A stretch of 43,178 bases of DNA from Planctomycetota bacterium (GCA_038227875.1 JBBRPR010000067.1:1-43178), one strand, 5' to 3'; shown: positions 11,909-21,583, numbered from the stretch's first letter. The notes: generated by a model from the letters alone, not told the origin. A program made the numbers and translations.

Positions 11909-11984
11909 TGGTGCCAAGGCCCAGAATTGAACTGGGGACACCCACATTTTCAGTGTGGTGCTCTACCAACTGAGCTACCTTGGC
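11909..11984 (-). tRNA. tRNA-Phe(GAA)
   Basis: GCCAAGG TA GCTC AGTTGGTA GAGC A CCACA CTGAAAA TGTGG GTGTC CCCAG TTCAATT CTGGG CCTTGGC ACCA: canonical cloverleaf, encoded CCA. Confidence 0.97.
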
Positions 11985-18785: not shown

Positions 18786-20087
18786 CTACGGCTTTGCGTT
18801 GACGGACTCCAATAACCGGCAAAGCGCTGTTCCGTCGGACTTCTCAAACCACTTCACTCGATCCTTTCCATCGGCATCTTTGAAAAACTCGAAGTCCATT
18901 TCATTTTGATTGTCTACTCCCAAGGGGAGTAGTTCCTTCTGCACTTCCCGTTCTATGCGAATTTTCGTTGCTTCCACCATGGCATAAGTGTGAGCCGTGT
19001 GGCCTGTCTTGTCGGCAAGGGTCGCGTCAGCGTCGGCGGAGAGCAGCATTTTGACCACGTCGATTTTGCGTTGTTCGCGTGACCAGGAGCGACCTAAAAC
19101 GGCATACATTAGCGCTGAGGATCCATCGACATCCACAGCATTGACGTATGCGTCTGCATCTAACAGCATGCGCACAATTTCTGGCCAACTGGCGGCCATC
19201 ATCAGCGCTGTTTCACCTTTGTATCCCGCTAGGTTGACGTCTGCACCCGCTGCGATCCAAGCGGCTGCGACGTCTTGCATTCCGCCGGCCGATGCAATTG
19301 CCAGTCCGGTCAAGCCGTCCTCAGGGCGCCGGCAGTTAACATCAGCGCCTTGGCTAAGAAAAGTTTTGAAAAGATTGGGATTGTAGGGTGGATTGGCCGA
19401 AGACAGAAGTCCCGCGTCGATGTCACGAAGAATGGGCTCGTCGATTTTCGATCCGTCGTGAATGGCATTTAAGCTGGGAGTGGTGGCAGAATCAATTTGC
19501 GCTTCAGTTTCCCGTTGATTGTCACGTCCCTCGGAATTTGAATGTTGGACGGTTCCTGAATCGGACCGCCGGTAGTCATTGAATATCCATGCAAGGGATC
19601 GTCCGAGCAGTCGTTCGCGATTCAAAAATGTTTTAGGCAGCAGGCCGGCAATGGAAAGGCTGATAGCGGAGTCGAACGTTGTAAATACACGCCGGTTTCG
19701 GTCCTCAGTCACCGTCCAAGGAATCATGTAATCGTGTTGTGCGGAGGAATGACAGGTCACGTTACTGCCATCCTTTAGAAACAACTTGATGCGTACCACT
19801 GGGGAGTCGTCTGTCCAGTCCGAACCAAAAACTTTTTGGACCAGTTCCGGGGACATGCCGAGCAGTTTCGGGTTGGGAGCATCAAGCGGCTCGCGCTCCA
19901 ATGCTGTCAGTAACACTGAAACTGATTCCACTGAGACGAAGAGGTTTTTCAATTCAGGCGGATCTACAATGCGGAATCGATCGCCTGCCGCAAGGGCTTC
20001 GAATTTTGCGGCATGTGACGGCGGCTCGGAGAGTCCAAGCCAGTGCGAGAAAATAACGAACCGCTCAACCTCACCGCCGTGGATCAT
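18786..20087 (-). CDS. Ankyrin-repeat protein with unknown N-terminal domain
   Basis: GADVN..GLTGL, GADVNL..GETALMMA, DAYVNAVDVDGSSALMYA, DATLADKTGHTA; visibly lower GC than flanks; start uncertain. Confidence 0.8.
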   Translation of the reverse strand: MIHGGEVERFVIFSHWLGLSEPPSHAAKFEALAAGDRFRIVDPPELKNLFVSVESVSVLLTALEREPLDAPNPKLLGMSPELVQKVFGSDWTDDSPVVRIKLFLKDGSNVTCHSSAQHDYMIPWTVTEDRNRRVFTTFDSAISLSIAGLLPKTFLNRERLLGRSLAWIFNDYRRSDSGTVQHSNSEGRDNQRETEAQIDSATTPSLNAIHDGSKIDEPILRDIDAGLLSSANPPYNPNLFKTFLSQGADVNCRRPEDGLTGLAIASAGGMQDVAAAWIAAGADVNLAGYKGETALMMAASWPEIVRMLLDADAYVNAVDVDGSSALMYAVLGRSWSREQRKIDVVKMLLSADADATLADKTGHTAHTYAMVEATKIRIEREVQKELLPLGVDNQNEMDFEFFKDADGKDRVKWFEKSDGTALCRLLESVNAKP

Positions 20088-20271: not shown

Positions 20272-20655
20272 CTAGTGAAGCATCTGCTTTTCTTCTGAAC
20301 AAATGGCCGCTGGCCGCCACAACTTCAACTTTCGAAACACCCGCGCGTCCGCGCTCGGATGCACGGCCAGAGCGGTCATCGCGTGCTGCAGGTCCGGCTC
20401 GATGAAAAATTCGCTGGCGACGCCACGAGCGGTAAGCTCGCGGTGCCAACGTCTCAATTCCGGTTCGTTTTCGACGCCGAGGACGACCAGCGTTTTATGC
20501 TCGGCGGCCCAGTTGCGGACCTATGGGTCCGCGCCGTGCTTGAGCATGAATTCGGCCAGCGCGTGGGCGGTCTGGACGACCGCCTGCGCTGGGGTGAGGT
20601 CCTGGCGCGTCAGGATGTAGAGCCTGCGCGCGTTCGTCTCATCACGATTGCCCAT
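20272..20655 (-). CDS. PTH2-like (PTRHD1/phage-type) peptidyl-tRNA hydrolase interrupted by one in-frame amber TAG (codon 45, 20523-20521); recoded gene or pseudogene
   Basis: MGNRDETNARRLYILTRQDLTPAQAVVQTAHALAEFMLKHGADP*VRNWAAEHKTLVVLGVENEPELRRWHRELTARGVASEFFIEPDLQHAMTALAVHPSADARVFRKLKLW...; both halves in the same frame with PTH2-like motifs; SD GGGAGG. Confidence 0.8.
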
Positions 20656-21166
20656 GTTGCGCCTCCCGTCTGGCGGCGGTAAAGCGTTCGGCTTCCGCGA
20701 AACGTTCCGGGTCGGCCGCCAGTTCAATCAACGTGGACGAGAGCGACGCCAGCGCGCTGAAGATCAACGCAGAAGCCTTTGCGCGCGAGACGTGATGCGC
20801 AAACTTGCCAGCGCGGACGGCTTTCCGGACGTCCTTCTTCAGCGGCAGTGCGCCGTTGCCAAACTTCAGCAGATGAAGCGCCGTGAGCCAGCGCGACGCC
20901 TCCTCGCGGGCGGCGAGATACTCCGGCCAGCTGGGATGGGGCGGCGAGATGCAGGCGGTGACTTTTTCGTAGGCTTCCCAACGCTGCGTCCATCCGGCGT
21001 CGAGATCGAAGGCGCATTTGCGGCGGCACCTGAACACCGCGCCGTCGGGCGAAACGTAGACCCATTTCTGAGCCGTCTCGGATTTGAACGCGTCGGACTT
21101 CAACCGGCGAATCCGTTCGGAAACCTGAGCGACGTGGAACTGCAAGACCTGTGTAATCGTGACCAT
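20642..21166 (-). CDS. Hypothetical 174-aa protein overlapping the start of the PTH2-like gene
   Basis: Start MVTITQVL after SD GAGGAG; ends in TGA; 14-bp overlap with the downstream gene. Confidence 0.75.
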   Translation of the reverse strand: MVTITQVLQFHVAQVSERIRRLKSDAFKSETAQKWVYVSPDGAVFRCRRKCAFDLDAGWTQRWEAYEKVTACISPPHPSWPEYLAAREEASRWLTALHLLKFGNGALPLKKDVRKAVRAGKFAHHVSRAKASALIFSALASLSSTLIELAADPERFAEAERFTAARREAQHGQS

Positions 21167-21174
21167 GTGTAAAA

Positions 21175-21233
21175 CTCCTCGCAAAAAGGTTGGTTGTGAA
21201 ACTGCACGCGAACGTGGGAACCAGCCTGCGAGG
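21175..21233 (-). promoter_or_regulatory. SD-sequestering hairpin upstream of the 174-aa gene
   Basis: CCUCGCA pairs with UGCGAGG (covers GAGG of SD GAGGAG), UGGUU/AACCA, apical CACG-UUCG-CGUG. Confidence 0.7.
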
Positions 21234-21260
21234 TCACGGCGGACGGAAGACCTAGAGCAT
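21234..21260 (-). CDS. uORF2 / minigene ATG-CTC-TAG (ML*; readthrough product ML-X-VFRPP ending at TGA)
   Basis: Strong SD AAAGGAG 5 nt before ATG at 21260; TAG 21254-21252; next stop TGA 21236-21234 directly abuts the SD-sequestering hairpin. Confidence 0.6.
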
Positions 21261-21311
21261 GGCGTCTCCTTTCGGATGGCTTGGAATGTGTAAGTGAGAA
21301 TGGATGCGCGC

Positions 21312-21348
21312 AAAAACAAAAAGGCCAACGGGAACGCCGCTGACCTTT
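21312..21348 (-). terminator. Intrinsic terminator/attenuator inside the leader
   Basis: AAAGGTCAGCGG-CGTTC-CCGTTGGCCTTT followed by TTGTTTTT. Confidence 0.8.
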
Positions 21349-21383: not shown

Positions 21384-21401
21384 CTAGAGAAAACCGCGCA
21401 T
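21384..21401 (-). CDS. uORF1 leader peptide MRGFL* ending in TAG
   Basis: SD AAAGGA 6 nt before ATG CGC GGT TTT CTC TAG; the frame stays open past the TAG through the terminator and is in frame with uORF2. Confidence 0.55.
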   Translation of the reverse strand: MRGFL

Positions 21402-21468: not shown

Positions 21469-21544
21469 TGGTGGCCCCGGCGGGAGTCTCACCCGCAACC
21501 GCAAGCTTTAGAGGCGAGCTGCTCTGGAATTGAGCTACGGGACC
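21469..21544 (-). tRNA. Atypical tRNA with CUA anticodon (amber suppressor / tRNA-Pyl-like)
   Basis: GGTCCCG TA GCTC AATTCCA GAGC A GCTCGC CTCTAAA GCTTGC GGTT GCGGG TGAGACT CCCGC CGGGGCC ACCA: 76 nt, paired acceptor, D and T stems, encoded CCA, loop CU-CUA-AA. Anticodon stem has two pyrimidine mismatches, D-loop lacks GG, T-loop lacks TTC. Confidence 0.85.
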
Positions 21545-21548
21545 GCGT

Positions 21549-21583
21549 TGGGGTTAGTGAACCCCATGAGAGGAGGTTGTCAA
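21549..21583 (-). promoter_or_regulatory. Promoter of the CUA tRNA with operator-like palindrome over the -10 region
   Basis: TTGACA at 21583-21578; TGGGGTT-CACT-AACCCCA inverted repeat at 21566-21549; -10 match is weak. Confidence 0.6.

Follow-up and report, generated by a model that had tools for sequence, protein, structure and literature searches.

What is a tRNA with the amber-reading anticodon CUA doing in a bacterium that uses TAG as a normal stop codon? The question is raised by a tRNA(CUA) gene at 21469..21544 (minus strand) of contig JBBRPR010000067.1 from a Planctomycetota bacterium. The window analysed here is the whole stretch of 43,178 nt (positions 1-43178 of this contig), and the host genome comprises 9.34 Mb in 176 contigs and is 88% complete. 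Within 1.3 kb downstream of the tRNA(CUA) gene, all on one strand, lie two mini-open reading frames (mini-ORFs) that end in TAG, a gene that we call ORF-A and a PTH2-like hydrolase gene interrupted by TAG. Comparison with 20 other loci from soil metagenomes and Acidobacteriota metagenome-assembled genomes (MAGs) suggests that the tRNA(CUA) is probably a working amber suppressor and the key to a compact, horizontally mobile cassette gated by UAG read-through. This small cassette is previously undescribed and, judged from its sequence, appears to be expressed only when the tRNA(CUA) reads UAG.

A tRNA(CUA) linked to genes with fixed UAG codons

The tRNA(CUA) gene encodes a 76-nt RNA with an encoded CCA, A73 and the anticodon loop CUCUAAA, and is identified by ARAGORN, by Rfam, by homologues at two of the comparison loci (L027 and L028) and by covariation in the acceptor stem. 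The initial annotation had called it a non-canonical amber-anticodon tRNA. This description holds, since ARAGORN places CUA at position 34 of a minus-strand gene and Rfam model RF00005 is matched over the full model (1-71) at 40.5 bits (E 2.7e-5), the covariance-model score exceeding the gathering threshold of 29; an ordinary tRNA-Phe in the window (11909-11984) scores 72.4 bits for comparison. The structural details that accompanied the description can likewise be read directly from the gene, namely the CCA end, A73, the U8-A9 linker, the U3:G70 pair, the D-loop AAUUCCA without GG, the T-loop UGAGACU and a six-position anticodon stem whose inner positions include a U-U and a C-U mismatch. The odd D- and T-loops are kept in the close homologues of L027 and L028 and in no other linked tRNA. 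The predicted fold energy is unremarkable (z -1.39, with 18 of 200 shuffles of this single sequence equally good), and it is the Rfam score together with conservation that marks the tRNA as more than a chance structure.

The comparison loci form two sets. A scan with the PTH2-like alignment gave 15 loci, 13 from metagenomes and two from MAGs (Pyrinomonadaceae and Blastocatellia), while a search with the ORF-A profile alone through 301 genomes belonging to the same class as the Blastocatellia MAG gave six carriers, five of which were new; L048 and L050 are near-identical. A same-strand tRNA(CUA) is present at 13 of the 15 loci of the first set. Eleven of these were called by ARAGORN, and the others are L029, whose tRNA is mis-called as Phe yet has the loop CUCUAAA, and L035, where the contig ends inside the tRNA. 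The two loci without a counted tRNA are L038, which is cut off inside the gene, and L039, a distant TAG-less homologue that lacks the tRNA. ORF-A is found directly upstream of the PTH2-like gene at 13 of the 15 loci by BLAST, and in addition at L032, in divergent form, by eye. No other conserved neighbour was found in the first set, the flanks differing from locus to locus.

At all assessable ORF-A loci (18/18) a tRNA with the CUCUAAA loop is present, and the refuting condition set earlier, a decayed pseudogene whose anticodon is not conserved as CUA, is contradicted: CUA is kept in each of the 18 context-linked tRNAs. Their bodies are otherwise diverse, with Rfam scores from below 29 (L029 and L033) to 68.9 bits and A, U or G as the discriminator. 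Apart from those of the window, L027 and L028, the linked tRNAs have GG and UUCGAAU loops, and several score 62-69 bits. In the 13 linked tRNAs that were aligned, the features constant throughout are the loop CUCUAAA and all seven acceptor pairs, six of which are maintained via compensatory changes.

The poorly coding stretch at 20272..20655 (minus strand) is a single PTH2-like gene of 127 codons, broken by one in-frame TAG at codon 45 (20523-20521) and closed by a terminal TAG (20274-20272). When the internal TAG is read as X, residues 12-106 match Pfam PF01981 across it (34.8 bits, the cut-off being 23; positions 3-105 of the 115-position profile), and the profile of TAG-less homologues matches M. 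jannaschii Pth2 (PDB 2zv3) at E 3.3e-6. The cut-offs of the Pth2 equivalog models are not reached (24.8 bits against 126 for NF003314 and 18.9 against 82 for TIGR00283); by these scores the protein is a divergent member of the PTH2 fold and not an orthologue of archaeal or eukaryotic Pth2. Sixteen of the 18 other PTH2-like genes share this TAG column (13/15 in the first set, within the motif D-P-TAG-[V/L/I]-x-x-W, and 3/3 at further loci), the exceptions being L028, which has Ala, and L039. The PTH2 domain continues after the TAG with invariant residues. Gln or Ala stands in this column in four full-length homologues and Ala is aligned there in M. jannaschii Pth2; in the model of a TAG-less homologue the residue follows a loop and opens a helix, a position that is not known to be catalytic. 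The window protein also has a 15-residue C-terminal tail that is absent from most homologues. As a separate observation, TAG is also the terminal codon of the PTH2-like gene in both the window and L032, and the cassette's own tRNA could extend these genes.

UAG is also found in the two leader mini-ORFs between the tRNA and ORF-A (both minus strand). Leader-2, with its Shine-Dalgarno sequence (SD), occupies 21234..21272; the SD AAAGGAG (21272-21266) precedes an ORF (21260-21234) of sequence ATG CTC TAG GTC TTC CGT CCG CCG TGA, with the UAG at 21254-21252, and read-through would give the peptide M-L-X-V-F-R-P-P-stop. The arrangement SD-ATG-YTN-TAG precedes ORF-A at all 12 loci with upstream sequence, the window included, and at all five independent loci. 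At nine of the 12 the frame runs on for 5-6 codons to TGA or TAA, giving M-L-X-x-x-[R/K/H]-[P/A/S]-P-stop, and L032 has a longer variant that ends in R-P-P-stop. This ending is kept at the peptide level while all four Pro codons and several Arg codons are used, which suggests that ribosomes do translate past the leader UAG. Where the leader is an ORF of its own (14 loci), its second stop is in no case TAG. In L033, L035 and L038 the sequence ATG-TTG-TAG is instead fused in frame to ORF-A, for which there is no other ATG.

Leader-1 (21384..21401), identified from the sequence and from other loci, reads ATG CGC GGT TTT CTC TAG (M-R-G-F-L-UAG). In the window its frame stays open for 49 codons past the UAG, in frame with leader-2, and ends at the leader-2 TGA. 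A similar M-x-(x)-F-[T/L]-TAG ORF is found 18-80 nt after the tRNA at nine loci, and M-T-TAG in L041; the read-through frames are open for 49-121 codons and join leader-2 in frame at 7 of 10 loci. The leader-1 read-through frame contains a terminator-like hairpin of 12 pairs at 21320..21348 (minus strand), followed by TTGTTTTT.

A second hairpin, at 21175..21233 (minus strand), is predicted by minimum free energy (MFE) folding. It pairs CCUCGCAGG (21233-21225), directly after the leader-2 stop, with UUGCGAGGAG (21184-21175), which contains the SD of ORF-A. An analogous pairing between the bases that follow the leader stop and the SD or AUG of ORF-A is predicted at all nine loci folded, with compensatory changes in L030, L037, L046 and L048.

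The five new loci of the second set provide an independent test, as they were found by ORF-A alone. All five have a same-strand tRNA(CUA) upstream and all five have the leader M-L-UAG-x-x-R-P-P-stop, whereas a PTH2-like gene, with one TAG at the window column, is present in three. Two of the new carrier genomes are without any PTH2-like gene. The core therefore consists of the tRNA, the leader and ORF-A, with the hydrolase as a frequent accessory.

ORF-A, genomic setting and origin of the cassette

ORF-A (20642..21166, minus strand) encodes 174 residues beginning MVTITQVLQF, and its final 14 nt, with the stop, also form the start of the PTH2-like gene. It has no internal TAG except in the form fused at codon 3. 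No match was found in Pfam, NCBIfam, PADLOC or PHROG, and neither ORF-A nor the PTH2-like protein matches a defence model of PADLOC-DB 2.0 at E<=0.1. The AlphaFold (AF2) model (pLDDT, the predicted local distance difference test, 91.7) shows helices and a beta-hairpin. Foldseek found nothing in the PDB at E<=0.001, the ESM Atlas gave no usable match, and the best Z in a wide search with VIA-align, 6.2, is of the size expected for generic helical matches. Among 1.84 billion representatives the ORF-A profile recovers 136 small, stand-alone cluster representatives, none of which is fused to a known domain.

The cassette is foreign to its surroundings. ORF-A occurs in one of 401 genomes of the host phylum, that one being the host itself, and the PTH2-like gene in none of 40 relatives. 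An alpha/beta-hydrolase-like gene upstream in the window is multi-copy and specific to the host family. Since the flanking gene is family-specific and the cassette is absent from relatives, the contig can be taken to belong to the host and the cassette to have been acquired horizontally. The best locus of the alpha/beta-hydrolase-like gene in a relative lacks the tRNA, and its flanks are not syntenic with the window, so that the island borders could not be set. Two alpha/beta-hydrolase-like paralogues in relatives each contain one in-frame TAG (G010:C134:40940-42130 and G012:C88:10353-11600) and may be pseudogenes or something more; no tRNA(CUA) matching that of the window was found in these two genomes. 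An ankyrin-repeat protein encoded directly downstream of the cassette (18786-20087, minus strand) matches PADLOC model PDC-M72A (64.9 bits, E 2e-18), a match that may reflect the repeats only.

The tRNA(CUA) of the window is the sole CUA tRNA among about 81 tRNA calls in the host genome. Its nearest relative there is tRNA-Trp(CCA), with weak similarity, and blastn against the 40 relatives gave only generic tRNA matches (Arg-CCG, Met and tRNA arrays) and no orthologue. Exact-pattern scans with the odd D- and T-loops gave no matches in genome contigs and, in viral contigs, nothing but one chance match inside a coding region without a tRNA. The Blastocatellia-type tRNA(CUA) is closest to host tRNAs with the anticodon CAU (75-78% identity), and a tRNA-Lys origin, suggested by eye, is unsupported. 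GlnRS was not found in the 88%-complete host genome. A -35-like hexamer TTGACA (21578..21583, minus strand), tentatively identified by eye, lies about 35-40 nt upstream of position 1 of the tRNA. TTGACT or TTGACA occurs at an equal distance in L027 and L028, with an A/T-rich hexamer coming after a 17-nt spacer, while a strict consensus scan found no promoter at the window locus.

Several further tRNA features were seen in passing. At L032:5385-5459, just downstream of the PTH2-like gene, a second tRNA-like gene (56.9 bits on Rfam) is assigned no anticodon by ARAGORN; judged by eye, the anticodon arm forms a lengthened stem with a UUCG-type cap, which would make this a tRNA-like RNA that lacks an anticodon loop. 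The tRNA(CUA) has opposite-strand tRNA-Gln(CUG) and tRNA-Gln(UUG) genes as neighbours in two cassettes (L034:676-751 and 1023-1097; L036:2198-2274), and L035 carries an additional ORF of about 105 codons (L035:1830-2150), located between its PTH2-like gene and its tRNA. Elsewhere in the host, a tRNA-Ile call with the unusual anticodon AAU and an encoded CCA (C66:25411-25485, minus strand) has a T-arm like that of the tRNA(CUA). Contig C25 of the host has an array of about 28 tRNA calls in about 5 kb (at about 17-22 kb); relatives also have such arrays, at L008 (genome G004, same family), with 20 tRNAs in 3 kb, and at L002 (G017, an unpublished genome of the same order), with 17.

A putative UAG-gated switch and its alternatives

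From the conserved parts and their linkage we infer how the cassette could work, with the tRNA(CUA) decoding its UAGs and with a pause and a hairpin switch as the intermediate steps. UAG checkpoints would lie at the end of leader-1, at codon 3 of leader-2 and at codon 45 of the hydrolase gene. When RF1 wins at these codons, translation would stop early, the ribosome-binding site of ORF-A would stay paired and the hydrolase would be truncated. When charged tRNA(CUA) reads the leader-2 UAG, the ribosome would proceed to the [R/K/H]-x-Pro-stop ending, where it would probably pause and open the hairpin, allowing ORF-A to be translated. The hydrolase gene, which overlaps the ORF-A stop, would need one more UAG read-through. 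The cassette would in this way turn the capacity for UAG read-through, set by charged tRNA(CUA) against RF1, into expression of ORF-A and the hydrolase. Attenuation of transcription via the terminator-like hairpin before leader-2 may also occur.

What the output is for can be proposed only tentatively. The products could, as a tRNA-ester hydrolase suggests, act as feedback on suppression or in a clean-up after it, for example by hydrolysing aminoacyl- or peptidyl-tRNA(CUA). A further tentative proposal sees the cassette as a natural device for the surveillance of UAG termination, with up to three serial UAG checkpoints, whose products would restrain the suppressor, keeping low-level amber suppression in homeostasis, or else rescue or kill cells in which RF1 has failed, for instance under attack by a TAG-recoding phage. 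The leader-1 frame, crossing the terminator-like hairpin, would then be one such checkpoint, leader-2, unmasking the start of ORF-A, the next, and the UAG in the hydrolase gene the last, and ORF-A would be a new translation factor or an effector with a new fold.

A number of observations weigh against the proposal of a UAG-gated cassette. The loci are related, so that the counts and any combined significance overstate their independence. The lack of any PTH2-like gene in two of the new carrier genomes and the Ala of L028 in place of TAG show that the hydrolase is not essential to the core. The tRNA of the window may be a weak suppressor, given its low Rfam score, the two mismatched positions of its anticodon stem and its altered elbow. 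A hairpin with a T-run 30-72 nt before leader-2 was detected at only 9 of 17 loci, albeit with a crude finder, and the shuffle test of the hairpin over the ORF-A SD is moderate (26 of 500 shuffles equally good in the window, 3-63 of 500 across loci). Stalling at Pro-stop endings is familiar from TnaC, RAPP and the Pro-stop literature, and for R-P-P-stop it is proposed by analogy with these. The hint of RNA is a single 267-nt contig from the metatranscriptome run of a close relative, matching 20887-21153 with 6 differences; it covers part of ORF-A, not the tRNA or the leaders, and such a contig can prove neither transcription nor its absence.

The resemblance to tRNA-Pyl and the possibility of an expanded code deserve particular attention. 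The ARAGORN label 'tRNA-Pyl' for the window tRNA is due to the anticodon only. The initial annotation had noted tRNA-Pyl-like features but no pyl genes in the window. That absence extends, for PylS and PylB, from the window to the 88%-complete genome, in which TIGR02367 (PylS_Cterm) has no match at E<=0.001, although absence at this completeness is not proof, and TIGR03910 (PylB) gives only sub-threshold radical-SAM matches, the best at 43.3 bits where the cut-off is 348; the search did not extend to pylC and pylD. A review (PMC7609411) lists for tRNA-Pyl G73, a single nucleotide linking the acceptor and D stems, a variable loop of 3 nt and an anticodon stem of 6 bp. The window tRNA has the CUA anticodon and lacks G18G19 and T-Psi-C, but the differences noted originally (A73 and a 2-nt linker) are real and its variable loop has 4-5 nt instead of 3. 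The tRNA-Pyl-like features are thus present, whereas the idea that the likeness is meaningful does not survive comparison with sister cassettes: as tRNA(CUA) genes in the same context have ordinary GG and UUCGAAU loops at 62-69 bits, the resemblance is, on this evidence, incidental and the tRNA no part of a Pyl system.

An expansion of the code, in which the tRNA(CUA) carries a special, perhaps non-canonical amino acid that ORF-A helps to make or attach and the residue at UAG is important in the PTH2-like enzyme, as in the Pyl or Sec systems, would account for the fixed UAG in 16 of 18 other genes, the dedicated tRNA, the adjoining conserved ORF-A and the oddities shared with tRNA-Pyl. We nevertheless consider it improbable. 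Besides the missing PylS and PylB, the TAG column accepts Gln or Ala in TAG-less homologues and Ala in M. jannaschii Pth2, and its modelled position at a helix start is not known to be catalytic; the tRNA bodies and their discriminators (A, U and G) are too varied for one dedicated synthetase, and ORF-A has no synthetase-like match. UAG is also found at codon 3 of the leader, where residue identity hardly matters, and two genomes hold the tRNA, the leader and ORF-A without the hydrolase. The host itself uses TAG as a normal stop. It ends 1458 of 5612 filtered long ORFs (26%), in-frame continuation is seen after 12.2% of TAG and 11.6% of TAA codons, which is no excess in this crude ORF-based test, and RF1-like, RF2-like and Pth1 genes are present in the genome.

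It is very unlikely that the tRNA is a non-decoding RNA serving as a decoy, a substrate or an RNA antitoxin for ORF-A or the hydrolase, with the UAGs merely terminating truncated products or pseudogenes. The altered elbow and mismatched anticodon stem of the window tRNA would suit such a role, as would the action of the hydrolase family on tRNA esters and an overlap between ORF-A and the PTH2-like gene of the kind seen in toxin-antitoxin pairs. However, the anticodon loop is the only invariant feature of the tRNA, several linked tRNAs are fully canonical (62-69 bits), and in L033, L035 and L038 ORF-A has no start codon but the ATG that precedes the TAG. The uncharged decoy considered in the initial annotation is likewise disfavoured, since protein-level conservation persists beyond each UAG, with codons that vary synonymously while the protein is kept. 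A remnant of a TAG-recoding phage or mobile element (code-15-like), in which the tRNA would be a general suppressor and the TAGs ordinary sense codons, is highly improbable as well. According to a preprint (10.1101/2021.08.26.457843), TAG-recoding phages do carry suppressor tRNAs; the PTH2-like protein matches the phage families phrog_3668 and phrog_1866, and the cassette is foreign to the host phylum. Against this, the TAGs recur at a small set of fixed positions even in diverged loci and are not scattered, and none lies inside ORF-A apart from the codon-3 fusion form. The 19 flanking proteins, of unrelated housekeeping type, include no phage or integrase domains, no relative of the cassette was found in the viral contig collection, and the flanks vary between loci. 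Finally, a decayed tRNA pseudogene that acquired CUA by chance beside a hydrolase pseudogene with a nonsense mutation could explain the low Rfam score, the closeness of the window tRNA to host tRNA-Trp(CCA), which is one anticodon change away, and the in-frame TAG itself, as CAG needs only one change to become TAG and Gln stands in this column in one homologue. This is extremely unlikely, and a chance origin is already refuted, as far as sequence comparison can do so, by recurrence of the combination in 18 assessable loci with very different tRNA bodies and by its absence from 40 relatives.

Significance and relation to known systems

Suppressor tRNAs that occur naturally in bacteria, those of the Pyl and Sec systems aside, are usually seen as accidents or as tools of recoded phages, whereas the dedicated amber suppressor described here appears to be wired into gene regulation. 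If this is correct, the cassette would give cells or mobile elements a new means of sensing how termination is balanced against read-through, and would be a source of naturally tolerated tRNA(CUA) scaffolds and of a new translation-linked protein family (ORF-A). Suppressor tRNAs are given as occurring in 0.3% of standard-code bacterial genomes (PMC13092985), and PTH2 has been noted in jumbo phages (PMC7824862). For annotation, our results call for caution, as a 'tRNA-Pyl' call and a split PTH2 gene in a soil bacterium can belong to one functional unit. A search of the full-text literature, subscription papers and supplements excepted, found no account of a cassette combining tRNA(CUA), PTH2 and leader.

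One parallel in gene content is the Pyl system, in which a dedicated tRNA(CUA) gene likewise stands beside genes with a conserved in-frame UAG; the window tRNA shares with it the lack of G18G19 and T-Psi-C and an anticodon stem of six positions. The cassette differs in having no PylS or PylB and, in the window tRNA, A73, a 2-nt linker and a 4-5-nt variable loop; moreover, sister cassettes have ordinary cloverleafs, the UAG column tolerates Ala or Gln, and UAG occurs in leader peptides. In regulatory design, the cassette resembles translational attenuation by leader peptides (erm/cat type) and termination stalling at Pro-stop (TnaC type). With these it shares a short upstream ORF that has a strong SD and ends in [R/K/H]-x-P-stop, as well as a hairpin, predicted to begin directly behind the leader stop, that would hide the next SD or AUG. 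The event sensed would be different, not a drug or an amino acid but a dedicated suppressor tRNA reading through the UAG of codon 3, and we know of no other natural example of such sensing.

Control of a translation-related gene by its own termination efficiency has precedents. ArfA is controlled by tmRNA, and prfB is autoregulated by an in-frame stop codon (PMC12421855). In these cases too an early in-frame stop ties the synthesis of a translation-related gene to termination efficiency, but the cassette needs no frameshift, its own tRNA would give the read-through, and its product is a PTH2-like hydrolase and not a release factor. TAG-recoding phages (10.1101/2021.08.26.457843) are also mobile units with a suppressor tRNA(CUA) whose TAG-containing genes are made only when the tRNA acts. 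The cassette is, in contrast, a three-gene chromosomal unit without phage genes, with TAGs at fixed positions and in a host that uses TAG as a stop.

In their logic, engineered amber switches are a close parallel. As outlined in a review (PMC6412442), these place TAG in a target gene or a leader peptide under the control of a tRNA(CUA)/synthetase pair, and they share with the cassette UAG-gated expression, the use of serial UAGs against leakage and a leader TAG that controls downstream genes. Such switches are man-made, whereas the cassette, which has no recognisable dedicated synthetase, is natural and carries its own tRNA; if our reading is correct, it would be the first equivalent found in nature of the switches that synthetic biology has built on amber suppression.

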